Position numbers and translations under genes: made by a program | Shown: piece by piece, positions 9,304-64,000 of the stretch | Layout: the number at the start of each line of letters is the position of its first letter | How positions within the stretch are numbered: the stretch's first letter is position 1 | Assembly (NCBI GenBank): GCA_030637655.1 | Contig: DAOWGI010000005.1 | Span: 4,766-68,765, forward strand | DNA from: a candidate division FCPU426 bacterium | GTDB lineage: Bacteria > Oederibacteriota > JAAXVQ01 > JAUVAV01 | Length of the DNA stretch: 64,000 nucleotides | Direction of reading: 5' to 3' | The notes under the pieces: model-generated | The model's database searches: none | What the model saw: only the letters and a program-made list of their open reading frames with translations | What the model was told of the DNA's origin: nothing

Positions 9304-9500
9304 GCATGTTTAGTCAGAATTCAGGAGTCAAAATAAGAACGTCGGAACGAAATTTTCAAGATTTAATTGTGCGGCAAAAAGTTATCAGTTTATTTTAGGC
9401 GCAAAGACGCATAACATCAACAAAACGTAGAATCTTGTTCTGATTTTATTCTGAATTCTGGATTCTTACTACTGGATACCTGAGTAGTTACTAATAAACA
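9304..9500. repeat. ~190-bp repeat element (family C), inverted copy at 63880..64000
   Basis: 9355..9470 is reverse-complement match to 63890..64000; internal imperfect terminal inverted repeats (agtcagaattcag / ctgaattctga). Confidence 0.6.
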
Positions 9501-10851: not shown

Positions 10852-11057
10852 ACGATGACAGACATATGCTTTCGAGTCAGTTCCTATAACCGTAATAGTA
10901 TTTTTTGCACTGGTAGCTTGAGCATTTAGTCGCTTTTGTTAGTAGTAAGAGGGTATTTGGTGACTACGGTAGGGGCGTTTAATTAAACGCCCCCACAAGA
11001 TTCCCGATCAAGTATGGAGATGACCGGAATACTAAATTAATCAAGTTTAAGTAAGGA

Positions 11058-14725: not shown

Positions 14726-16702
14726 GTGAATGGATCCATGCCGGAGTATTGCATTTCTTTGTCTGAAAATAAAAAAATCGCGGTAGCGCCGGGCACTACG
14801 CTGGGAGAAGCCTTAAAACAGCTCAATCCGGCTTTATACGGTAAAGCCTTAGCCATAAAAATCGGAGACCGGTTTTTTGATCTGGCGCGGGAAGTTCCGG
14901 TTGGTGAGAGTCGCATCACAGTCCTGGATTTTGCCTCGCCGGAAGGCCGGGAGGTATTTCGTCATTCCACCGCACATTTGATGGCCGCGGCAGTCAAAGA
15001 ATTGTTCCCGGAAACAAAAGTAACGATTGGTCCTTCCATCAAAGACGGTTTTTATTATGACTTTGACCGGGATACCCATTTTACCCCGGAAAGCCTGGAA
15101 ACCATTGAGAAACGCATGAAAGAGATTGCTCAAAAGAAACTGTCATTTATCAGAAAAGTCGTGTCCAGAGAAGAAGCCCGTGAGTTGTTTGAAAAAACGG
15201 GGGAGACCTACAAGCTTGAATTGCTGGATGCGATTGAACCCGGCCAGGATGTCTCGCTCTATTTTTTAGGAAACTTTGTTGATCTCTGCCGCGGTCCGCA
15301 TATCCCGCACTCCGGCCTGTTAAAAGCATTCAAGTTGCTCTCCGTGGCCGGCGCGTATTGGCGCGGCGATGAAAATAACAAGATGCTGCAACGGATTTAT
15401 GGGATTGGTTTTGAAAAAAATTCGGGTTTAGAAGCATATTTGCAGCGTTTGGAAGAAGCCAAACGCAGGGACCACCGCCGCTTGGGAAAAGATTTGGATC
15501 TTTTTTCTTTTCATGAAGATTCCGGAGCAGGACTAGTGTACTGGCATCCCAAAGGTTCGAAGATTCGCATGCTCATGGAGGATTTCTGGCGAGCAGAGCA
15601 TTTACAGAATGGGTACGAAATTCTCTATACACCGCATATCGGAAAAGCTCAATTGTGGGAGACTTCCGGTCATTTAGCGTTTTATAAGGAATCCATGTAT
15701 GCACCCATGGTTGTTGATGAACTTGATTATTATATCAGACCTATGAATTGTCCTTTTCATATAAAAATATATAAAAGTGATGTGCGCTCCTATCGCCAGT
15801 TGCCAATGCGCTGGGCGGAGTTGGGAACTGTATATCGCTATGAAAAATCCGGCGTTTTGCACGGTTTGTTCCGGGTTAGAGGATTCACTCAGGATGATGC
15901 GCATATTTTCTGCACACACCGGCAATTGGCGGGCGAAATTCAGGAAGTATTGCGATTTGTGCTGTACATTCTAAAAACCTTTGGATTCAAAGAGTATGAA
16001 ATATATCTCTCTACCAAGCCGGAGAAAGATACTGTGGGTAGTGATGAGGTATGGGACCAAGCTACTGAAGCGTTGCGCAAAGCGCTTGAAAATTCAGGCT
16101 TGCCATATGCTGTGGATGAGGGTGGGGGAACCTTTTATGGTCCGAAAGTGGACATAAAAATCAAAGATTGTTTGGATCGAATCTGGCAATGTTCAACCAT
16201 TCAGGTGGATTTTAATTTGCCGGAACGGTTTGATATGAAATATGTTGGTGAAGATGGAAAAGAGCATCGGCCCATCATGATTCATCGGGCCTTAATGGGT
16301 TCCTTGGAGCGCTTCTTCGGAATTATGGTCGAGCATTATGCCGGCGCTTTTCCGGTTTGGCTGGCGCCAGTGCAAGCCAGGATTTGCACTATTGCGGATC
16401 GTCATCAGGAATTTGCCCAAGAAATTGTGAAGCAATTGAAGTCACACGGAATACGCGTTGATATTGATATGAAAAGCGATAAAGTCAATGCTAAAATACG
16501 CAATGCGCAATTAGAAAAGATACCGTACATGCTGGTGGTGGGAGACCGGGAAGTGGAACAGCAGGCAGCAGCCTTGCGGATACGCACCGGAGAAAATCGC
16601 GGTGCCATGCCAATTGAAGAAATCGCGAAATTAATCCAGCGAAAAAACGCGGATAAGGCGCTTGACCTGGTAGAGACGCGATTAATCGCGTCTCTAGATT
16701 AA
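14726..16702 (+). CDS. thrS: threonyl-tRNA synthetase
   Basis: TGS, editing, class II catalytic (HRALMGSLERF) and anticodon-binding regions; last 11 codons and TAA stop lie inside a tandem REP. Confidence 0.9.
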   Translation: MNGSMPEYCISLSENKKIAVAPGTTLGEALKQLNPALYGKALAIKIGDRFFDLAREVPVGESRITVLDFASPEGREVFRHSTAHLMAAAVKELFPETKVTIGPSIKDGFYYDFDRDTHFTPESLETIEKRMKEIAQKKLSFIRKVVSREEARELFEKTGETYKLELLDAIEPGQDVSLYFLGNFVDLCRGPHIPHSGLLKAFKLLSVAGAYWRGDENNKMLQRIYGIGFEKNSGLEAYLQRLEEAKRRDHRRLGKDLDLFSFHEDSGAGLVYWHPKGSKIRMLMEDFWRAEHLQNGYEILYTPHIGKAQLWETSGHLAFYKESMYAPMVVDELDYYIRPMNCPFHIKIYKSDVRSYRQLPMRWAELGTVYRYEKSGVLHGLFRVRGFTQDDAHIFCTHRQLAGEIQEVLRFVLYILKTFGFKEYEIYLSTKPEKDTVGSDEVWDQATEALRKALENSGLPYAVDEGGGTFYGPKVDIKIKDCLDRIWQCSTIQVDFNLPERFDMKYVGEDGKEHRPIMIHRALMGSLERFFGIMVEHYAGAFPVWLAPVQARICTIADRHQEFAQEIVKQLKSHGIRVDIDMKSDKVNAKIRNAQLEKIPYMLVVGDREVEQQAAALRIRTGENRGAMPIEEIAKLIQRKNADKALDLVETRLIASLD

Positions 16703-16714
16703 TCGCGTCTCTAC
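16670..16714. repeat. tandem REP-like palindrome (GTAGAGACGCGATTAATCGCGTCTCTA x1.5)
   Basis: gtagagacgcgattaatcgcgtctctagattaatcgcgtctctac; overlaps thrS 3' end. Confidence 0.7.
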
Positions 16715-16726
16715 AAAGGATGAAAA

Positions 16727-17929
16727 ATGATCAGCAAAAAAGGAATGTCCTGTGTTCCGGGATTCAAATTCTCCGGAATTGCGCTTGAGGGCAAAAAGAA
16801 AAGCTACGGCTTGATTTACTCGGAAAGCGAGCATACCCTGGGTGCGGCGGTCTATACCCGCAATGATATTCAAGCCGCGCCTATTTATGTTTCCAAGGAG
16901 ATGGATGCCAAAACCGAGAGCAAACGTGCCATCCTGGTCAATAGCGGCAATGCCAATGCTTTTACTGGTGAACAGGGATTGCTGGATGCCGGAAAAAGCA
17001 TCGAGCAATTGGGCAAACAATTAAAAATCAAGCCGGAGGAATGTTATGTCGCATCCACCGGAGTTATTGGGCAAACCTTACCCCTGGATCGTATTCTGAA
17101 GAAAATGCCTGAATTGATTGGAAATTTAGCTGCCAAGCATGATCAGGCATTTGCCCAAGCTATTCTTACCACAGACACACGACTCAAACAAGCTGCGCTC
17201 ACATTTGAAATTTCCGGACAAAAAATCAACCTGGCAGGATGCGTAAAAGGCGCCGGCATGATACAACCTAACATGGCCACAATGCTTTGTTTTGTTGTCA
17301 CGGATGCCCAAATCAGTCATAAGTTGTTGGATAAAGCGCTGCGTATGGCTGTTGACGAGTCATTTAATGTCATTACCGTAGATGGTGATACCAGCACGAA
17401 TGATTCTGTATTTATTTTGGCCAATGGGTATGCGTCCAATATGCTGATTGAAAAAGAGAATAGCGACTTTTCTGTTTTTGCAAATCGCCTCAAAGAATTA
17501 TTGCATTATTTGGCCATGGAAATTATTGCTGACGCGGAGGGTATTACCAAGCGGATATATATCCAGGTAAAAAAAGCCAGAGACAAAGAACAGGCCATGA
17601 AAATTGCCTATGCAGTAGCAAATTCACCCTTGGTTAAAACGGCTTTTTTCGGAGAACAACTTAATTGGGGTAGGATTGTTATGGCAGTAGGAAAAGCCAT
17701 GACCGGCGTTGAAGCTGATAAACTGGATATAAATATAAATGAATATGAAATTGTAAAAAGGGGTGAACCTCAGACTAAAGCTGAATATTATCAGCAAGCT
17801 GAACAATCTTTAAAAAGGAAAAATATAGAGGTTGAAATATATTTAAATCTGGGAAATGAAAGCAAATCCGTGGTCACAACTGATTTATCTTTAGAATATA
17901 TTAAAATAAACGCGAATTATATCTCGTAG
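16727..17929 (+). CDS. argJ: bifunctional ornithine acetyltransferase/N-acetylglutamate synthase
   Basis: ATML autoproteolysis site (NMATMLCFVVTDA); 400 aa. Confidence 0.9.
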   Translation: MISKKGMSCVPGFKFSGIALEGKKKSYGLIYSESEHTLGAAVYTRNDIQAAPIYVSKEMDAKTESKRAILVNSGNANAFTGEQGLLDAGKSIEQLGKQLKIKPEECYVASTGVIGQTLPLDRILKKMPELIGNLAAKHDQAFAQAILTTDTRLKQAALTFEISGQKINLAGCVKGAGMIQPNMATMLCFVVTDAQISHKLLDKALRMAVDESFNVITVDGDTSTNDSVFILANGYASNMLIEKENSDFSVFANRLKELLHYLAMEIIADAEGITKRIYIQVKKARDKEQAMKIAYAVANSPLVKTAFFGEQLNWGRIVMAVGKAMTGVEADKLDININEYEIVKRGEPQTKAEYYQQAEQSLKRKNIEVEIYLNLGNESKSVVTTDLSLEYIKINANYIS

Positions 17930-19856: not shown

Positions 19857-19884
19857 GTAGAGACGCATGATTATGCGTCTCTAC
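19857..19884. repeat. REP-like palindrome gtagagacgcatgattatgcgtctctac
   Basis: perfect 10-bp stems with GTAG/CTAC ends; between two minus-strand genes, abutting the RBS. Confidence 0.65.
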
Positions 19885-22503: not shown

Positions 22504-22675
22504 TTGTCATTCCCGAACGGTTTAATCGGCCCCGACCGGAAAAGATATATAGGGACGCATTCGGCAGGAATCTGGTTTTTTAAACCGTATCCCCGATACA
22601 AGCATTCGGGGATGACGGCGTGGAGGCTGCATTCGGGGATGACAAACAAAAAAACGCATGATTGCCATGTTCAGT
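22504..22675. mobile_element. MITE (family A composite) copy 1, long form
   Basis: gtcattcccgaa...ttcggggatgac inverted termini with tail aaacaaaaaaacgcatga...; 5 copies in window. Confidence 0.6.
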
Positions 22676-24692: not shown

Positions 24693-24852
24693 AACCTGTC
24701 AGTGAAGCATTTTTTCAGTTTGTCATTCCCGAACGGTTTAATCGGGAATCTGGTTTTTTAAACCGTATCCCCGATACAAGCATTCGGGGATGACAGGGTG
24801 GGGGCTGCATTCACGGATGACAAACAAAAAAATGCATGACTGACATGTTACA
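24693..24852. mobile_element. MITE (family A composite) copy 2, short form with outer TIRs
   Basis: outer gcaacctgtcagtgaagc ... gactgacatgttaca; inner unit lacks 38-nt segment present in copies 1 and 3. Confidence 0.6.
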
Positions 24853-29037: not shown

Positions 29038-29212
29038 TAACATGTCAGTGAACTGTGGCTAAACAAAGGTTGTCATTCCCGAGGGTTTAATCGGCCCCGA
29101 CCGGAAAAGATATATAGGGACGCATTCGGCAGGAATCTGGTTTTTTAAACCATATCCCCGATACAAGCATTCGGGGATGACAAACAAAAAAAACGCATGA
29201 CTGACATGTTAC
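29038..29212. mobile_element. MITE (family A composite) copy 3, long form with outer TIRs
   Basis: taacatgtcagtgaac...gtcattcccgag...ggggatgacaaacaaaaaaaacgcatgactgacatgttac. Confidence 0.65.
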
Positions 29213-29220
29213 CCTTTTAC

Positions 29221-30048
29221 TTAAGGATGGATTGCTTTCAAATTTTTTTTCTGCATGGCATCCAGAATTTCTTGCTGCAATTGTTTTTCGCGAGTTGTCA
29301 TCCGCGGTGCGATGTTGTCCATAAAAACGATTGCGTCTTTTTCCAACCAGATCATGCCCTTTTTAACACAATACTCCAAATATGACCGGCGATGAAAAAT
29401 ACTGGCGCTGGGATACTCCCGGTCCATAGTTCCCCAAATGGTTTTAGCGATTCTTTGCCCCAGCTTACGGCTGCGATGATACTCAATGACCGATTGCAAT
29501 TCAGTATAGGTGATCCAACCTGACCCGGACAGAAAATATACGGCATCCTCAATAAATTCCGCTTTCTGATGCTCAAAGGAATCCAATGAGAGGATGGCAT
29601 AGCGGGAGAGACCCCAAATATGATTGAATGCCGACCGAAAGTCATCCAGAGTGTGTTCCGGAGCAAAATACTTGATAGTGCGCACTTGTTTGCCGGCGTT
29701 GTCTTTCCAGGCCAGGGCAATTATTCCTTTGGCCGCGTGTGCCCGCAATAAACGACCGCGGTATTTTTTTTTAAGAGCAAAACCGCGTATGCGTTTCATG
29801 GCCAGGAAACATTTGCGGTATTCTTCCCAGGGTACGGTCCCGGTGCGTTTGCCGAGATAGTTTTTCAGCCATACACTTACGGCTTCTCCTTTTTGTTCAA
29901 GAATAAGCGCGGTTTCATCTTGGCGAATGCCGCGTACATCATAGATGACCAACCGTGAAAAGGTGATATCATGGTCTTCAGTATTAGCGGTGACAGGCAG
30001 CAAGGTAAATATCAGAATCGCCGGGAATGCCCAGTGCAGTGTTTTCAT
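29221..30048 (-). CDS. hypothetical secreted protein, translationally coupled to prfB
   Basis: Signal peptide; 4-bp overlap with prfB stop; no recognisable motif. Confidence 0.4.
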   Translation of the reverse strand: MKTLHWAFPAILIFTLLPVTANTEDHDITFSRLVIYDVRGIRQDETALILEQKGEAVSVWLKNYLGKRTGTVPWEEYRKCFLAMKRIRGFALKKKYRGRLLRAHAAKGIIALAWKDNAGKQVRTIKYFAPEHTLDDFRSAFNHIWGLSRYAILSLDSFEHQKAEFIEDAVYFLSGSGWITYTELQSVIEYHRSRKLGQRIAKTIWGTMDREYPSASIFHRRSYLEYCVKKGMIWLEKDAIVFMDNIAPRMTTREKQLQQEILDAMQKKNLKAIHP

Positions 30049-31160: not shown

Positions 31161-31299
31161 GTAACATGTCAGTGAACTGCGGTTAAACATAAGGTTGTCA
31201 TTCCCGAGGGTTTAATCGGGAATCTGGTTTTTTTAAACCATATCCCCGATACAAGCATTCGGGGATGACAAACAAAAAAACGCTTCACTGACATGATAC
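31161..31299. mobile_element. MITE (family A composite) copy 4, short form
   Basis: gtaacatgtcagtgaactg...gtcattcccgag...ggggatgacaaacaaaaaaacgcttcactgacatgatac; directly upstream of prfB. Confidence 0.65.
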
Positions 31300-33987: not shown

Positions 33988-34164
33988 GAGTGTGAGCATT
34001 TAGTCTGTTTTTTTTATGTTGTCATCCCCGAATGCTCTTATCGGGGATATGGTTTAAAAAACCGGATTCCTGCTGAAGGCGTCCCTATATATCTTTGCCG
34101 GTCGGGGCCGATTAAACCCTCGGGAATGACAACCTTTGTTTAATCACAGTTCACTGACATGTAC
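33985..34164. mobile_element. MITE (family A composite) copy 5, long form, reverse orientation
   Basis: rc of copies 1/3 including 38-nt long-form segment; outer TIR cacagttcactgacatgtac. Confidence 0.6.
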
Positions 34165-49870: not shown

Positions 49871-51655
49871 TTAACCGGCATAATTCCGTTTGAATATTTT
49901 ATCCAGCTCATCCCAGGAAAGGCGAAAAATATAAGGTCTTCCGTGCGGACAGGTCGGCAATCCTTTCAGGGCTCGCATTTGTTTGATGAGTGCCAGCATG
50001 CTTTCCGGTTGCAGGCGTTCTCCGGCTTTCACAGCTGCTTTGCAGGCCATGCTCTGCAAAATTTTTTCTCTAAACTTGTTTTTATCCATCAGCTTACCGG
50101 TCTCAGCCAGCCACTCAATAACCTCATTGACAATGGCAATCAAATCTCCCTGCGGAAATTGATCCGGTTGGGTTTGAATGGTAAAAGTATTGCCGCCCAA
50201 AGGTGATATTTCCAAACCCATCTCAGAAAACAGTTCCCTTGCCTCAGTGAGCAATCCGGTTTGCGAAGGCTTAAGTTCAAACGTTAAAGGCAGCAATAAA
50301 TTTTGCCGGGGCAAGTCCCGTGGCCATTGCAAAAAGGATTCATAAAGAATTCTTTCGTGAACAGCATGTTGATCCACCAGGAAAAAGCCTTGTTCATCTT
50401 GCACGGCAATATAGGTCCGGCCGACCTGACCAATGACACGCAATGCAACTTCCGCGGATGGTTCTTCCCCGATAGGGGCGCGATTAATCGCGCCCCTACC
50501 ATCTATATATGTAGCAATCGATTCTTTCACCCGGTCTTGGGACCAACCCATTGGCAAGGATTGCGGAGAATAAGTAGGGGCGCGATTAATCGCGCCCCTA
50601 CTTGGTTTTTCCTTAGATGTTGAAATATGCAATAAACTCGAGGGTTTACTGCCGGTCAGATCTCCTTGCTGCAGCACATTTTGGATAGTGGTATAAACCA
50701 AATTGTGAATACCATGTTCATCACGCAAACGCACTTCTCTTTTAGCAGGATGCACATTAACATCAACCAGATGATTAGGCATGGTGAAGAACAAATAGCA
50801 GATCGGAAAACGGCCTTCCGGTATTAGTGTCCTATAGGCTTGAATCACAGCATGCGCGATACCACGATGTTCAACCGGGCGTTGATTGATGAAAAAGCGC
50901 ATGCCGAGCCTGGTATTGCGATGATCAGAGGGATTCGCAATTCGTCCTCGAATCCAAATCCCGCCTGCTTCCCTCTCCACTGGCAGCATATTTTGCGGTA
51001 AAGCACTTCCATACAGTGTTGCCAAGCGGTCGGATAATATTTTAGTAGGCGGACAATTAAAAAGTTCACGCCGGTCTACAATCAGTTTAAAACCAACACG
51101 TTTGTGCGCAATAGCGGCCAACTCTACGACTTGTACAATATGGGATTGTTCAGTGGAATGAGTTTTCATAAATTTGCGGCGGGCCGGAGTATTAAAAAAG
51201 AGATCTTCAACAACAATCGTAGTTCCGGCCGCGCAACCGGTTTCGCCTTTTGACGTGATCTTGCCGCCGGAGAGTTTCATGCGAAATCCCACCGATTTTT
51301 TTTCCGGCCGCGTTAAAATTTCCACCTGGGAGACCGCGGCAATGGATGGCAGGGCTTCCCCGCGAAAACCCAAAGTGTCAATATTTTCCAAATCTTCCGC
51401 TTTACTGATTTTACTGGTCGCGTGCCGGGAAAACGCCAATTGGGCATCCTCCACATTCATACCCTGGCCATCGTCAGTCACGCGTATACTTTGGAAACCG
51501 GCACTTTTAATTTCCACTTCAATTCTGGTCGCCTTGGCATCCAGGGCGTTTTCAAGCAACTCTTTAACCACCGCAGCCGGACGTTCCACCACCTCGCCGG
51601 CGGCAATCAGATTGGCAACCTGATCCGATAATATTTTAATATGTGTATTGGTCAT
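49871..51655 (-). CDS. mutL: DNA mismatch repair protein MutL (with two in-frame REP insertions in linker)
   Basis: GHKL ATPase motifs (ELLENALDA, DDGQGM, GFRGEAL) and C-terminal dimerisation domain; linker contains 2x RGAINRAP encoded by REPs. Confidence 0.9.
   Translation of the reverse strand: MTNTHIKILSDQVANLIAAGEVVERPAAVVKELLENALDAKATRIEVEIKSAGFQSIRVTDDGQGMNVEDAQLAFSRHATSKISKAEDLENIDTLGFRGEALPSIAAVSQVEILTRPEKKSVGFRMKLSGGKITSKGETGCAAGTTIVVEDLFFNTPARRKFMKTHSTEQSHIVQVVELAAIAHKRVGFKLIVDRRELFNCPPTKILSDRLATLYGSALPQNMLPVEREAGGIWIRGRIANPSDHRNTRLGMRFFINQRPVEHRGIAHAVIQAYRTLIPEGRFPICYLFFTMPNHLVDVNVHPAKREVRLRDEHGIHNLVYTTIQNVLQQGDLTGSKPSSLLHISTSKEKPSRGAINRAPTYSPQSLPMGWSQDRVKESIATYIDGRGAINRAPIGEEPSAEVALRVIGQVGRTYIAVQDEQGFFLVDQHAVHERILYESFLQWPRDLPRQNLLLPLTFELKPSQTGLLTEARELFSEMGLEISPLGGNTFTIQTQPDQFPQGDLIAIVNEVIEWLAETGKLMDKNKFREKILQSMACKAAVKAGERLQPESMLALIKQMRALKGLPTCPHGRPYIFRLSWDELDKIFKRNYAG
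50470..50498. repeat. REP-like palindrome (ataggggcgcgattaatcgcgcccctac) inside mutL
   Basis: perfect palindrome; in-frame. Confidence 0.7.
50574..50601. repeat. REP-like palindrome (gtaggggcgcgattaatcgcgcccctac) inside mutL
   Basis: perfect palindrome; in-frame. Confidence 0.7.
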
Positions 51656-51672: not shown

Positions 51673-51700
51673 GTAGAGACGCCCAATTTGGGCGTCTCTC
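51673..51700. repeat. REP-like palindrome gtagagacgcccaatttgggcgtctctc
   Basis: same stem family, loop ccaatttgg. Confidence 0.65.
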
Positions 51701-51782
51701 TTGATTTTCATGGTATTTTTATACCTTGTTTTTGGGATTGTGTCAATTTATGGGTGAATTGATAATGATTGATAATGATATT

Positions 51783-51811
51783 GTAGAGACGCCCAATTTG
51801 GGCGTCTCTAC
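51783..51811. repeat. REP-like palindrome gtagagacgcccaatttgggcgtctctac
   Basis: second copy 110 bp downstream. Confidence 0.65.
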
Positions 51812-55587: not shown

Positions 55588-55615
55588 GTAGGGAACAGGC
55601 ATGCCTGTTCCCTAC
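55588..55615. repeat. REP-like palindrome gtagggaacaggcatgcctgttccctac
   Basis: perfect palindrome with GTAG/CTAC ends. Confidence 0.6.
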
Positions 55616-55699: not shown

Positions 55700-55727
55700 G
55701 TAGGGAACGGTCGCGACCGTTCCCTAC
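55700..55727. repeat. REP-like palindrome gtagggaacggtcgcgaccgttccctac
   Basis: same stem as 55588 copy, different loop. Confidence 0.6.
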
Positions 55728-55837
55728 GAAACAATGATCATCCCCGACAATTCGCACGACACCGCTTATTTTGGTTGCTAGAGATTATAAAAGAGCGGCG
55801 CGGCGCGATTAATCACGCCCCTATAATTAAATATGTT

Positions 55838-60914: not shown

Positions 60915-61290
60915 GAAGTATGTCTGTAATGTTTCACTCCAGGTTTTTACACTTGGCGATTTTAATCTCATTGGTTTTCAACTTTTTTTTTTTAAAAATT
61001 CTAAAACATTCACTGCCTCCTGCAAAAATAGTTTATCACAGTCACCTTTTTTATTCCGGATTTTATTTTTGTAGCCGCAGGCCGAATTGCCTCACATTAA
61101 ATGTTACAAGGCTGAAATGCCTATAGCCTAATGATATTTGTTGACTCATGAAGGATGTTAATAAACGTTTCTTTTTTTGTCATCCCTATGAATGACAACA
61201 TAAAAAAACCGACCAATTGCTCAAGCTCCTGGCACGATAAGCTGCCACTTGACAAGCCTCTTGACCCGGCATTTCAGCAACCCCTTATTT

Positions 61291-61812
61291 ATATTGTTCA
61301 GCATAATTAGAAAAACCACCGGAATTATGGGCAATTTGATCTCACGCTCCACGCTATCAGACCCCATGTTTAAAATTCTGAGAACACAGCACAGTTTCAT
61401 GAGATTTACAGCTAACATATCTGTATTTGATATGCCTCAACCAGATTCTCAGCACAAGAAAGAGTTAATTCTGTCAATAATCATAGCTCCTCACAACCAG
61501 GAATATATATTCACGTTTTTTATTAAAGTTAGTTGAAATGTACACATTAATTCTGTTCTACTAATTAGAATAACAACAGTATATGTCCTTTACTGTTCCT
61601 GTAAACTCTCATGTAATAAGGCTATTTTTTACTCAGATTTTTTAAGTAATTAATAAATTGCGACTTTAATTTGTGTGTTCTGCATAGTGATTTAGACTTT
61701 ATCTTGAGCTCTAACATCTGATCCTTTACTTTCATTTTGTGATTAATTTCTCAGCCTTCATACTTATTCCCCTGAACATTTAAATAGTTTCTCCAAACAG
61801 AGTAACACAATA
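61291..61812. repeat. ~520-bp AT-rich repeat (family D) copy A
   Basis: ~88% identical to 63203..63737 with 1-nt and 18-nt indels; no conserved reading frame. Confidence 0.65.
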
Positions 61813-62630
61813 ATATATGCCAACAGCGCGGCCTGAATTGGACCCAACCCCCACCGGTTTACGGATCCACTCACCGAGGTATCCCGCGTTGCAACAATAT
61901 CTGATAGGCAATCCATCTATCCCCTTCGGAATAATAAACTGCCAGTGCGGCACCAGCCGGCTGTGATCGTCTATGGTTGCCAGCAGATACGTCTTCTTCC
62001 GCCTCCTGTTTTTCTCCACCTGCGCGGTCCATACATGGCTTCGGATTGCTACAAATCATTTGGATTCTCTGCCTCAAACCGCCTCTGATCCACTGCGGAC
62101 GGCAACGCTGGCTTCATCTTTTCGGCTCAATGCAAAAAACAGTACAGCGGGCTTTCCGCTAACTCCTCTTCTTTCGCGATTTCGCGCTTTTGCAGTTCCA
62201 GGCGTAACCGCGGTATGGAAGCGCGCGGCATCTCGGCTCTCATCAGCAAAATCCCTTCCCCCAATTCGCTCCCCAGTACCCGCTTTGCCCGCGGTCCTCA
62301 CGCACCTGCGGATACAACGACTTCAGCTTTCGCCCTCCGGCCAGATAACGGTGCTGCCAATGCTTGATTGTGCTTTTCGAAATCCGCGTTCGGTATGTCC
62401 CGGGTATTTTATACCTCTGCTCAGACTTCTCCCGCAAAAGCCGCTCCTGCCTCCCTTAGTCCGGCTCGTTCCCACTCACAAACTCCGAAATAACTCCGAA
62501 CCGGAACACTGCCACCTGCTTTTTCGCTTCTTCGTCCATCTTTTGCCTCCTGGTTTAGTTTTTTACTGCTCCCAGGGAGGCCATCACGTCTGATTATAAT
62601 GACACTCGTAGGTTGGCTGGTGGCTGGCAT
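61780..62630 (-). pseudogene. IS481/IS3-type DDE transposase (rve integrase core) remnant, frameshifted and C-terminally truncated
   Basis: LLATIDDHSRLV (D..HSR integrase core motif) in 61780..62019; upstream fragments in two other frames (62243..62437, 62421..62630); GC-rich vs flanking repeats. Confidence 0.5.
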
Positions 62631-62882: not shown

Positions 62883-63115
62883 GTAACAGGTCAGTGAAGT
62901 GCTGTGTTTTGTCAAATAACCCGGAAACATAATCCGGATAAACCGGAACTAAAAAGGTATATTCACCGCAGAGGACGACACATGGATTGTTCTATGTAGA
63001 GACGCGATTAATCGCGTCTCTACAGTTTTTATCCCATCTTTCGGAGGCAAGTCGCGTCCCTGGGAAAAAATAAATTAGCAGACCATATGTCTTTCTCGCT
63101 TCACTGATATGTTAC
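62883..63115. mobile_element. MITE (family B) with TGTAACAGGTCAGTGAAG / CTTCACTGATATGTTACA termini, containing a REP
   Basis: 17-bp TIRs; internal 45 nt shared with 24861 and 31302 copies; REP at 62996..63023. Confidence 0.55.
62996..63023. repeat. REP-like palindrome gtagagacgcgattaatcgcgtctctac
   Basis: identical unit to thrS 3' REP. Confidence 0.7.
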
Positions 63116-63202
63116 AAATGTTTTGAAAAAGTAGGTGGGGTTAGTTCACTTTAATGTGAGAGTAAACACTTGAGTCAGAATTAAAAAAAATCATATTTAT
63201 CT

Positions 63203-63737
63203 TGTTTAGCATAATTGGAGGCCAGACCAGGATTATGGGCAATTTAATCGCATGTCCCACAGTATCAGGCCCCATGTTTAAAATTCTGAGATCACAGCAC
63301 AGTTTCATGAGATTCACAGCTAGGATTTTAACCTCAGCTAACACATCTGCATTTGATATGTCTCAACCAGATTCTCAGCACGAGAAAGAGTTAATCCTGT
63401 CAATAATCTTAGCTCATCAACAACCAGAAATATATATTCACGTTTTTTATTAAAGGTCAGTTGAACTGTATCCCTTAATTCTGTTCTACTAATTAGAATA
63501 ACAACAGCATATATCCTTTACTGTTATTGTAAACTCTCATGTAATAAGGTTATTTCTTATTCAGATTTTTCAAGTAATTAATAAAATGCGACCCTAATAT
63601 ATGTATTCTGCATAGTGAATTAGACTTTATCTTGAGCTCTCACATCTGATCCTTTTCTTTCATTTTGTAATTAATTTATAAACCTTCATACTTATTTCCC
63701 TAAACATTTAAATAGTTTCTCCAAACAGAGTAACAAC
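63203..63737. repeat. ~520-bp AT-rich repeat (family D) copy B
   Basis: direct repeat of 61291..61812. Confidence 0.65.
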
Positions 63738-63879
63738 AAGTAATATTCGATCTCTAATGATAATTAGAACTTGAATTACTTGAATATTGTACTCTATCTC
63801 TTATTATATCAATTGAATTTGTGCTTAGTTAAAATAGAACTTTAAATTGGATTATAACTATTTTTATCACAAATTTATG

Positions 63880-64000
63880 CAACTACTCAGGTATCCGGTA
63901 GTCAGAATTCAGAATAAAATCATAACAATATTCTACGTTTTGTTGATGTTATGCGTCTTTGCGCCTAAAACAAACTGATGACTTTTTGCCGCACAATTAA
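63880..64000. repeat. family C element, inverted partial copy (runs off window)
   Basis: reverse complement of 9355..9470. Confidence 0.6.

Follow-up and report, generated by a model that had tools for sequence, protein, structure and literature searches.

A partially duplicated double-foot REP at the 3' end of thrS in a candidate-division-FCPU426-like bacterium

The junction between thrS, which codes for threonine--tRNA ligase (ThrRS), and argJ lies within a 64-kb window, by which we mean the whole stretch of DNA analysed (Table 1). The ThrRS carries Pfam matches to tRNA_SAD, tRNA-synt_2b and HGTP_anticodon, the last covering residues 546-635, and is a 100% match to a database protein (P0001); exact-sequence look-ups of its 658-aa and 654-aa forms returned no record, and a one-residue variant (P0122) was matched. 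The C-terminus of the thrS ORF (14726/14738..16702) reads ...ALDLVETRLIASLD*, the end as coded with the palindrome described below being ...DLVETRLIASLD. The native part of the gene stops at a Leu codon, CTG (16667-16669), conserved in relatives, and one base past this last conserved codon a palindromic repeat begins.

Read directly, the letters at 16670-16714 are GTAGAGACGC GATTAATCGCGTCTCTA GATTAATCGCGTCTCTA C. They contain a perfect 28-nt palindrome, GTAGAGACGCGATTAATCGCGTCTCTAC, whose 3' 17 nt, comprising the loop and the 3' arm, are exactly duplicated in tandem. Tandem Repeats Finder (TRF) returned the interval 16680-16713 (period 17, 2.0 copies, 100% match), and an inverted-repeat scan found 18-nt arms at 16670-16687 and 16697-16714 that are 100% complementary. 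An earlier note on this DNA had described a 1.5-unit tandem overlapping the last 11 codons of thrS. Tandem and overlap both stand; the former is more precisely a 17-nt duplication of loop and 3' arm, and the latter amounts to 10 sense codons (VETRLIASLD) plus the stop, the Leu CTG being native. The same note had drawn the stop codon from the gattaa of the loop, and indeed the TAA falls within the GATTAA of the second partial copy.

Table 1. Genes and repeat elements in the window, with coordinates on the 64-kb stretch
Feature	Coordinates	Strand	Description
thrS (threonine--tRNA ligase)	14738..16702	+	ORF; 654 aa from ATG, 658 aa from GTG at 14726
Composite double-foot REP	16670..16714	+	28-nt palindrome GTAGAGACGCGATTAATCGCGTCTCTAC with 17-nt internal tandem duplication; codes VETRLIASLD and stop
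17-nt unit GATTAATCGCGTCTCTA, first copy	16680..16696	+	TRF
17-nt unit GATTAATCGCGTCTCTA, second copy	16697..16713	+	TRF; frame moved +2 relative to a single REP (counterfactual translation)
thrS stop TAA	16700-16702	+	From REP loop motif ATTAAT; sits in 3' arm of 18-bp stem
AAAGGA, likely argJ Shine-Dalgarno	16715..16720	+	Directly 3' of REP; motif also in relative L001
argJ (ArgJ family), 400 aa	16727..17929	+	ORF; Pfam ArgJ E = 1.8e-132
REP subfamily GTAGGGGCGTTTAATTAAACGCCCCCAC	10969..10996	.	Between convergent genes
REP variant GTAGAGACGCATGATTATGCGTCTCTAC	19857..19884	.	In 49-nt spacer between two minus-strand genes
REP subfamily (A)TAGGGGCGCGATTAATCGCGCCCCTAC	50472..50499	.	In frame in mutL linker; read GRGAINRAPI
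REP GTAGGGGCGCGATTAATCGCGCCCCTAC	50574..50601	.	Second in-frame copy, mutL linker; read SRGAINRAPT
Decayed REP copy	51673-51701		Just upstream of mutL start
REP subfamily GTAGAGACGCCCAATTTGGGCGTCTCTAC	51783..51811	.	Intergenic
REP subfamily GTAGGGAACAGGCATGCCTGTTCCCTAC	55588..55615	.	Intergenic
REP subfamily GTAGGGAACGGTCGCGACCGTTCCCTAC	55700..55727	.	Intergenic
Decayed GGGGCGCGATTAAT-type relic	about 55797-55825		
Exact unduplicated 28-nt REP	62996..63023	.	Intergenic; also present in L125

The closest ThrRS relatives end in ...(D/E/T)L, which holds for P0002 (85% identity), P0003 (79%) and most of P0004-P0021 (about 70-75%). In the DNA of the two closest, L001 and L002, the gene ends GAT CTA TAG and GAC TTA TAG, with the TAG standing where the palindrome begins in the window and the palindrome itself absent. 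These junctions were aligned to the window by eye and with MAFFT, default megablast of these 79-85% relatives having given no matches. Since the relatives end ...DL-TAG without palindrome, the native stop has been displaced and the ORF has gained 10 repeat-coded codons (VETRLIASLD), in agreement with the earlier note, which had the repeat replacing or extending the native 3' end of thrS. Moreover, the comparison of C-termini with REP-free relatives proposed there did not refute that reading: among 120 ThrRS homologues, none but the window's own cluster has the REP-coded peptide. At 38 aa, the C-terminal tail of the window's ThrRS is the longest among about 80 homologues measured, whose mode is 28. 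The added residues lie beyond the anticodon-binding domain, on a naturally variable C-terminus, and would be translated, judging from the ORF; the protein most likely tolerates them and gains no function from them. A native origin was considered for the VE of the tail, P0008 and P0009 closing with ...LVE(PA), and this was rejected: P0009 reads CTC GTC GAA TAA without REP, and closer relatives are without VE. The exact ancestral junction is not reconstructable: the protein of the nearest REP-free relative is only 85% identical, and between its genes stands a different spacer, TAGCTGGG, in place of the REP. The gene order pssA-thrS-argJ is conserved in relatives, argJ being the neighbour in L001 and L002 as well, and the thrS-argJ spacing (21 nt and about 160 nt in relatives) is not.

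The length of the duplicated unit determines how the gene ends. In frame 0 a single REP is open and reads VETRLIASL with no stop; in the corresponding counterfactual, ThrRS would end ...LVETRLIASLQRMKNDQQKRNVLCSGIQILRNCA*, translation would cross the argJ start, and the extension would reach 33 residues, against 10 as it is. According to the counterfactual translations an 18-nt period preserves the frame, and only the 17-nt form yields an in-frame loop TAA. The 17-nt period shifts the frame by +2, so that the loop TAA comes into frame and ThrRS ends after 10 extra residues. The period is 18 nt in all 17 other partial-tandem junctions (16 in 14 metagenome loci, plus L042), against 17 nt in the thrS copy. 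Other period lengths also occur, locus L017 carrying a 13-nt partial copy.

The palindrome belongs to a family. With up to three mismatches allowed, the 28-mer was found twice in the window, where 100 shuffles give an expectation of 0.00. The second occurrence, at 62996-63023, has the form GTAG-AGACGCGAT-TA-ATCGCGTCT-CTAC, and the same unit stands at 16670, with one foot at either end of the hairpin. Beside the thrS composite, the window holds at least 7 intact REP copies and 4 decayed ones, dispersed over the 64 kb and mostly intergenic, two of them lying in frame in mutL. The stems of the subfamilies co-vary on both sides (AGACGCG/CGCGTCT, GGGCGCG/CGCGCCC, GGAACAGGC/GCCTGTTCC and others), and a perfect copy of the GTAGGGGCGTTTAATTAAACGCCCCCAC subfamily lies just to the left of the window (L123:1577-1604). 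Among 123 aligned copies no constant flanks or duplications were seen; T is enriched at position -1 and A at +1. Two other classes of repeat were considered and rejected: a CRISPR array, the sole tandem being a spacerless 17-nt unit and the other copies lying kilobases apart at irregular intervals, and a MITE (70-300 bp, with terminal inverted repeats and target-site duplication), the 28-nt unit being a hairpin only.

Elsewhere, at least 118 genome stretches from many phyla carry the exact 28-mer. Nostoc and Calothrix have it commonly, and there it is often nested within host hairpins and heptamer repeat arrays; 35 of 125 copies outside this genome fall in stop-to-stop ORFs 200 aa or more in length. 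At 8 of the 118 loci, all in other genomes, it lies inside a gene like those of REP-associated tyrosine transposases (RAYT), in a conserved loop, and is thus physically associated with it. The motifs PNHIH, WQ and YIxNN(P/V) are present in the encoded RAYT-like protein, which matches NCBIfam REP_Tyr_transpos (E about 1e-13). In most of the best 120 RAYT-like homologues the loop that follows the HuH motif contains RDAINRVST or VETRLIASL, in a ranking biased by the presence of the motif in the query itself. All-against-all clustering of 1405 ORFs from the 118 loci gave no universal REP neighbour, the only meaningful recurrent family being the RAYT-like gene in which the REP itself is embedded. 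The term REP used in the earlier note is therefore well placed, given the dispersed GTAG...CTAC family in the window and the tie of the 28-mer to RAYT genes elsewhere. An HMM of 7 RAYT-like proteins and an approximate E. coli RayT sequence found no TnpA_REP/RAYT gene among the window ORFs of at least 70 aa, and none was found in 5.4 kb of additional left flank, about 70 kb of this genome being covered in all. As no transposase gene was found in the window or flank, any cognate TnpA_REP in this genome is putative and its REPs could be relics. A TnpA_REP may have mobilised them here; the one sign of this, an indirect one, is that relatives at 85% and 79% identity do not have the insertion.

The predicted RNA structure of the composite is a stem of 18 bp closed by a loop of 9 nt (-28.9 kcal/mol, z = -7.6). 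The stem abuts the argJ Shine-Dalgarno, holds the thrS stop in its 3' arm and has no U-tract, and in the minimum free energy fold the AGG at 16717-16719 is paired with the CCU at 16666-16668. The argJ ATG (16727) lies 12 nt past the end of the element, the distance given in the earlier note. On the strength of the predicted fold, the composite probably acts as an mRNA structure; the hairpin may make argJ initiation dependent on ribosomes completing thrS, and modulation of thrS-argJ coupling by it, which the note had suggested, is plausible. An intrinsic (Rho-independent) terminator was rejected, the stem being followed by CAAAGGAUGAAAAAUG with no U run and no terminator call at the site, as was an Rfam structured RNA, with no match at 16600-16760 even at E <= 1.

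These observations are very likely explained together by a double-foot REP that inserted at the thrS stop, with loss of the native TAG, the new TAA being supplied by a 17-nt partial duplication. The insertion would be recent in the lineage of this candidate-division-FCPU426-like bacterium, and the element a 28-nt double-foot REP (GTAG, stem, ATTAAT loop, stem, CTAC), a non-autonomous palindrome of the type linked to TnpA_REP/RAYT subclass 2.4. The native TAG would have been lost, and the REP would have entered in the open frame 0 (VETRLIASL), as a single copy without stop. Partial tandem duplication of the loop and 3' arm would have followed or accompanied the insertion, with a period of 17 nt rather than the usual 18, moving the frame by +2 and bringing the loop TAA into use. 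The composite would then form an 18-bp hairpin in the mRNA, with the stop in its 3' arm and its end at the argJ Shine-Dalgarno. The sequences show how the element is built, its family of copies, relatives that have no insertion and keep the ...DL-TAG end, the arithmetic of the frames, and the link of this exact 28-mer to RAYT genes elsewhere; mobilisation by a TnpA_REP of this genome, the order in which insertion and duplication came about, and any effect on expression are inferred.

Assemblers can be misled by short palindromic repeats, and the duplication with its stop might be an assembly or sequencing artefact, the real gene having a single REP or none. This is highly improbable. The check for the same junction elsewhere, put forward in the earlier note, found it in two more assemblies, ENA ERZ23498528 scaffold_578 and Logan SRR13892585, whose ThrRS differs from that of the window by one residue. 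The NCBI MAG of the window, the ENA scaffold and the Logan contig came from different pipelines and represent the same population; they agree base for base at the junction, although SNPs separate them elsewhere (99.93-99.95% identity). Furthermore, the composite is only 45 nt, below read length (junction string CTCTAGATTAATCGCG). Equally improbable is a host regulatory signal evolved in place (a terminator, attenuator or operator), in which case the palindrome would not be a mobile element and the C-terminal residues would be native. A strong hairpin does lie between thrS and argJ, but it has no U-tract, no terminator call and no Rfam family; the 28-mer recurs in the window and, exactly, across many phyla; relatives without it end 10 residues earlier; and the palindrome is also found within the mutL coding sequence. 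This reading is largely refuted.

The selective history of the duplication is a finer question. The 17-nt duplication could be a selected compensatory change: readthrough (33 extra residues, over the argJ ribosome-binding site) would be harmful, and a rare frame-shifting variant of the usual 18-nt expansion, fixed for its latent TAA, would restore argJ initiation, with the hairpin coupling thrS and argJ. In favour of this are the uniqueness of the 17-nt period against the 17 junctions with 18 nt, the in-frame stop that arises from the 17-nt form only, and the position of that stop inside a stem that adjoins the Shine-Dalgarno. We nevertheless consider it rather doubtful, as this is a single event, other periods exist (the 13-nt copy of L017), and neutral slippage followed by drift is a compatible account. 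Moreover, the spacing of 21 nt and about 160 nt in relatives argues that tight coupling is not ancestral. Neither three further contigs of the same population, 99.93-99.97% identical and free of indels at every REP, nor the JGI metagenome collection yielded an intermediate allele (single REP or 18-nt form), and the thrS-REP junction string had no occurrence in the JGI collection. Unlikely and more speculative is a two-step rescue, in which the REP would destroy the stop of an essential gene and a rare 17-nt expansion would then be fixed for its latent ATTAAT stop; symmetric REPs, open in 2 of 3 frames on both strands, would in this way carry an emergency terminator, and the hairpin would gate argJ on thrS termination.

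The insertion of a double-foot REP at the thrS stop can be set beside several known systems. Subclass 2.4 'double foot' REPs combine a 5' GT[AG]G and a 3' C[TC]AC on one long hairpin; TnpA_REP subclass 2.4 corresponds to RAYT group 4 of Bertels et al., and REPs inside tnpA_REP genes have been published (Quentin, Siguier, Chandler and Fichant 2018, PMC6006769). The REPs of the window resemble those of that study, which occur in Cyanobacteria, Bacteroidota and scattered phyla, and the window 28-mer was found inside such genes. However, the FCPU426-like host lineage is not among the phyla named there, no subclass 2.4 gene was found in the window, and the thrS copy is a 17-nt frame-shifting partial tandem, not a plain unit.

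GTAG REPs downstream of ORF ends, or overlapping them with termini that supply the stop, have been described by Di Nocera, De Gregorio and Rocco (2013, PMC3733652), who found intragenic copies in DNA repair and tRNA synthetase genes and slightly more than 10% at the ORF end. Similarly, the window has a tRNA synthetase case (thrS) and a mutL case. In the published cases the TAG of GTAG is itself the stop. In thrS the frame reads GTA-G.. and finds no stop in the tag; what ends the gene is a TAA in the loop of a duplicated half-unit. The tag of those families is unpaired and present at one end only, unlike in the double-foot REP of the window. The REP, BIME and REPIN elements of E. coli and Pseudomonas, whose movement is attributed to a domesticated HuH/Y1 transposase (RAYT), are known mRNA 3' stabilisers (Nunvar 2010, PMC2817692; Bertels and Rainey 2011, PMC3116915; Messing 2012, PMC3479197). 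The window family shares with them short GC-rich hairpins, a 5' GTAG guide and many dispersed copies. They are asymmetric, with a single foot, usually form inverted doublets, flank RAYT and are largely extragenic; the family studied here forms a perfectly symmetric single hairpin, with 35/125 copies in long ORFs. The small dispersed repeats (SDR) of heterocystous cyanobacteria, said to have been described by Elhai and colleagues in 2008, are reportedly mobile palindromes of 21-27 nt in Nostoc/Anabaena, often nested in other repeats or hairpins. The window 28-mer is likened to them by size class, nesting and occurrence in Nostoc, not by sequence identity to a named SDR family. The palindrome and its peptides, looked up as text strings in the literature, matched no paper.

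The thrS case is a clear and fairly ordinary instance of the known remodelling of gene ends by REPs; the phenomenon is not new, and the present understanding of REPs is left standing. It shows cleanly, and in a datable way, how a very small mobile palindrome can alter the end of an essential housekeeping protein whose gene survives: three assemblies of one population are fixed for the insertion, which is not present in a relative at 85% protein identity. The range of double-foot REPs now includes a poorly studied candidate phylum, and the period of 17 nt here, against 18 nt elsewhere, offers a simple test of the part that selection may play when REPs become established at the ends of genes. 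In annotation, peptides such as VETRLIASL, RDAINRVST and RGAINRAP, where they occur in linkers or at the ends of proteins, should be treated as repeat-derived.

The thrS gene ends in a composite element (16670-16714) that reads GTAGAGACGC-GATTAATCGCGTCTCTA-GATTAATCGCGTCTCTA-C, that is, a perfect 28-nt palindrome, GTAGAGACGCGATTAATCGCGTCTCTAC, whose loop and 3′ arm (17 nt) are exactly doubled in tandem. Tandem Repeats Finder reported a period of 17 with 2.0 copies and 100% match, and an inverted-repeat scan found arms of 18 nt each, 100% complementary. Shuffled sequence is expected to yield 0.00 matches to the 28-mer at 3 mismatches or fewer; the window has two. The 1.5-unit tandem described in the earlier note is therefore confirmed. 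The ORF terminates as ...KALDL-VETRLIASLD-TAA, and the claims that the gattaa loop supplies the stop codon and that argJ lies 12 bp downstream both hold: TAA occupies 16700-16702, within the GATTAA of the second half-unit, and argJ starts at 16727, 12 nt past the element. The overlap of the repeat with thrS is also real, with a corrected count of 10 sense codons plus the stop instead of 11 codons, since the Leu codon before it belongs to the native gene. The longest thrS ORF begins at GTG 14726 (MNGSMPEY...), while the database protein and all relatives begin at ATG 14738 (MPEY...), and this ATG is the likelier start codon. The REP core, GAGACG-CG-ATTAAT-CG-CGTCTC (16673-16694 and 62999-63020), contains two inward-facing BsmBI/Esp3I sites flanking an AseI site; this is probably a coincidence, and these sites would be over-represented in REP-rich genomes.

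The closest relatives of this ThrRS are from the candidate division FCPU426 group. At 643-644 aa, P0002 (85% identity), P0003 (79%) and most of the 70-75% group share the ending ...K(A/S)(I/L)(D/E)L. Tail length, counted onward from the final [LVIM]R[LIVT]R motif in about 80 homologues, is 26-29 residues for 69; the tail of the window protein, with 38, is the longest, and the REP-coded peptide is confined to its own cluster. At the DNA level, the 85% relative reads GAT CTA TAG ctggg AAAGGA ttgtactcac ATG, where ATG starts argJ, and the 79% relative reads GAC TTA TAG, with argJ about 160 nt further on. Neither has a palindrome at the thrS end, nor any GTAG...CTAC palindrome across the 6-8 kb loci, and the order pssA-thrS-argJ is kept. 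Thus the palindrome starts exactly at the position of the native TAG, which bears out the proposal that the repeat replaced or extended the native 3′ end; AAAGGA, the argJ ribosome-binding motif, lies directly 3′ of it in the window.

A native origin of Val-Glu in the window tail was rejected: a small ThrRS subclade ends in ...LVE(PA), and its member P0009 codes for these residues without a REP (CTC GTC GAA TAA), so the match is coincidental. The 10-residue tail is likely tolerated, because the anticodon-binding domain (Pfam) stops short of the C-terminus, at residue 635 of 654, and natural tails 2-8 residues longer also occur (P0008, P0022, P0029 and P0032). The precomputed Pfam TGS annotation (PF02824) is absent from FCPU426-like ThrRS and present in more distant homologues.

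An assembly artefact is ruled out. An ENA scaffold and a Logan contig of another sample code for a ThrRS with a one-residue difference (P0122); they match the window without gaps at 99.95% over 20 kb and 99.93% over 8.7 kb, respectively, and both show the same junction base for base.

The GTAG...CTAC palindromes form a family in the window, mostly intergenic, with subfamilies set apart by changes in both stem sides. Two of the copies belong to mutL, where they code for ..SRGAINRAPT.. at residues 354-360 and ..GRGAINRAPI.. at 388-394; both fall in the linker that separates DNA_mis_repair (Pfam, 212-328) from MutL_C (Pfam, 408-548). A second repeat family of about 80-150 nt, unrelated to the REPs, has five copies in both orientations, with ends resembling inverted termini (TGTCATCCCCGAATGC...GCATTCGGGGATGACA), and looks MITE-like. 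Direct repeats of about 550 nt (61286-61816 and 63194-63746, 84-92% identity) flank the region of the intact REP at 62996, and inverted repeats of about 100-180 nt (90-96% identical) lie at 9311-9489 and 63881-64000, the right end of the window.

Palindromes and repeats of the window, with their positions and context
Feature	Position	Context
REP GTAGGGGCGTTTAATTAAACGCCCCCAC	10969-10996	between convergent genes
REP GTAGAGACGCATGATTATGCGTCTCTAC	19857-19884	intergenic
80-150 nt repeat	22519-22671	
80-150 nt repeat	24697-24849	
80-150 nt repeat	29040-29236	
80-150 nt repeat	31192-31270	
80-150 nt repeat	34009-34162	
mutL	49871-51655	minus strand; two in-frame double-foot REPs
REP, GGGGCGCGATTAATCGCGCCCC type	50472-50499	inside mutL
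REP, GGGGCGCGATTAATCGCGCCCC type	50574-50601	inside mutL
Decayed REP	51673-51701	18 nt upstream of mutL start codon
REP GTAGAGACGCCCAATTTGGGCGTCTCTAC	51783-51811	intergenic
REP, GGGAAC type	55588-55615	intergenic
REP, GGGAAC type	55700-55727	intergenic
Decayed REP relic	~55797-55825	intergenic
REP 28-mer, exact, without duplication	62996-63023	

Among species-representative genomes, the exact 28-mer is present in at least 118 stretches. Clustering of all ORFs at these loci revealed no universal neighbour gene; one ORF family, at 8 loci among the matches listed, contains the palindrome itself and is distantly related to REP-associated tyrosine transposases (RAYT). The first pointer was a match to an E. 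coli RayT query, which served as a lead only; the family was confirmed by NCBIfam REP_Tyr_transpos (E = 3e-13 and 7e-12, both below the curated cut-off) and has a weak Pfam Y1_Tnp match. In all members the palindrome lies in frame in the loop right after the HuH strand (...VVMPNHIHAIVxID-[RDAINRVST or VETRLIASL]-GGITGNKNPML...), and some carry a second copy past ...YFGEI. Among 6129 homologues, most of the best 120, a ranking biased by a query that itself held the motif, show these peptides too, frequently in tandem arrays with a 6-residue (18-nt) unit; others contain VETPKLGVST, which corresponds to the window subfamily at 51783.

Quentin et al. 2018 (PMC6006769) described TnpA_REP subclass 2.4, with motifs NH[IFV]H, WQ and YIxNNP, in Cyanobacteria, Bacteroidetes and various phyla, its 'double foot' REPs (5′ GT[AG]G ... 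C[TC]AC 3′), and in-frame REP insertion within tnpA_REP genes between HuH and Y; the RAYT-REP tie and in-gene REPs are thus already published. As our palindrome and RAYT data match this description, the thrS element is, by its sequence, a double-foot REP. The label REP is therefore justified by the family in the window and by the exact 28-mer inside RAYT-like genes elsewhere; no cognate transposase gene was found in the window or in the 5.4 kb beyond its left end. A RAYT-like gene of Bacteroidales UBA1715 (L013:5704-6351) codes twice for CRDGVHTVST, the palindrome GTAGAGACGGTGTGCACACCGTCTCTAC, which is the second commonest among the fetched loci (9 copies, apparently at a single locus); if that locus is L013, in-gene and dispersed copies would co-vary.

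In thrS the REP was inserted in frame 0, where GTAG is read GTA-G.. without a stop. With a single REP, ThrRS would run for 33 more residues (...LVETRLIASLQRMKNDQQKRNVLCSGIQILRNCA before the stop), crossing the argJ ribosome-binding site and start codon; only a 17-nt period puts the loop TAA in frame. Partial tandems are a recurrent variant of this REP: among the matches listed, 12 of 125 genome copies have a partial tandem copy within 40 nt, and a metagenome scan that allowed periods of 17 or 18 nt gave 16 junctions at 14 loci, all of 18 nt. These make up arrays GTAGAGACGC(GATTAATCGCGTCTCTAC)n, the longest showing four or more units in the flanks. L042, another locus with the 28-mer, also has 18 nt, which leaves the thrS copy as the sole 17-nt case among the partial tandems examined. 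An 18-nt period preserves the frame and so fits the 6-residue repeats of RAYT proteins. The 17-nt period may be accidental, as slippage also produces other lengths, such as 13 nt at L017. Its selection as a rescue of the lost stop is conceivable but rather unlikely, on a single event that cannot decide. The 18-nt arrays were seen in metagenome contigs L128:3615, L134:641-711, L133 and L127, and match repeats (RDAINQTD-RDAINQTD-RDAINRVST) in some RAYT-like proteins, such as P0136, P0156 and P0164.

In the predicted fold, the composite RNA forms an 18-bp stem with a 9-nt loop (-28.9 kcal/mol versus -19.8 kcal/mol for a single REP). The thrS stop codon lies within the 3′ arm, and the stem terminates at AAAGGA, where three more pairs can cover AGG. 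An intrinsic terminator was rejected, the composite having no U-tract, terminator call or Rfam match; it is thus probably an mRNA hairpin like those of other REPs and would act as a 3′ stabiliser or translational barrier. A ribosome ending thrS would have to melt the hairpin, which may free the argJ ribosome-binding site and so couple the two genes. To judge from the spacers of the relatives (21 and about 160 nt), such coupling is not ancestral.

According to Di Nocera et al. 2013 (PMC3733652), REP termini can supply stop codons, just over 10% of intragenic REPs are positioned at an ORF end, and REPs occur in replication/repair and tRNA synthetase genes. Our counts agree that a REP at a gene end is not unusual: of 125 exact copies among the matches listed in other genomes, 35 fall within stop-to-stop ORFs that span 200 aa or more, with lengths of 1000-2100 aa in some cases, and a TAG stop comes from one copy. 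That genes tolerate these REPs is explained by the palindrome itself, which reads the same on both strands and has no stop in two frames (VETRLIASL and RDAINRVS), the third being stop-RRD-stop. This kind of event being known, the main interest lies in the frame-shifting 17-nt period and in double-foot REPs in an FCPU426-like genome.

Hosts of the 28-mer among the matches listed include the Cyanobacteria Nostoc, Calothrix and Scytonema, many Bacteroidota, several Patescibacteria, Crenothrix, Methylococcales (Gammaproteobacteria), Myxococcota, Spirochaetia and Abditibacteria, and the 28 nt are identical across these distant phyla (L005-L122). A subclass 2.4 tnpA_REP gene could carry its own REP along in horizontal transfer, because one copy lies within its coding sequence. 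Many REPs are centred exactly in a host-specific inverted repeat, e.g. aacattatcgt[REP]acgataatgtt, and are thus nested in the loop of another hairpin (L009:535, L015:715, L032:3584, L048:4946, L071:4965 and 6776, L101:2918, L102:102 and 1969, L119:1586). About half of the 123 copies show the flanking bases that are enriched, T at -1 and A at +1, and REPs of Nostoc and Calothrix often break up heptamer tandem-repeat arrays.
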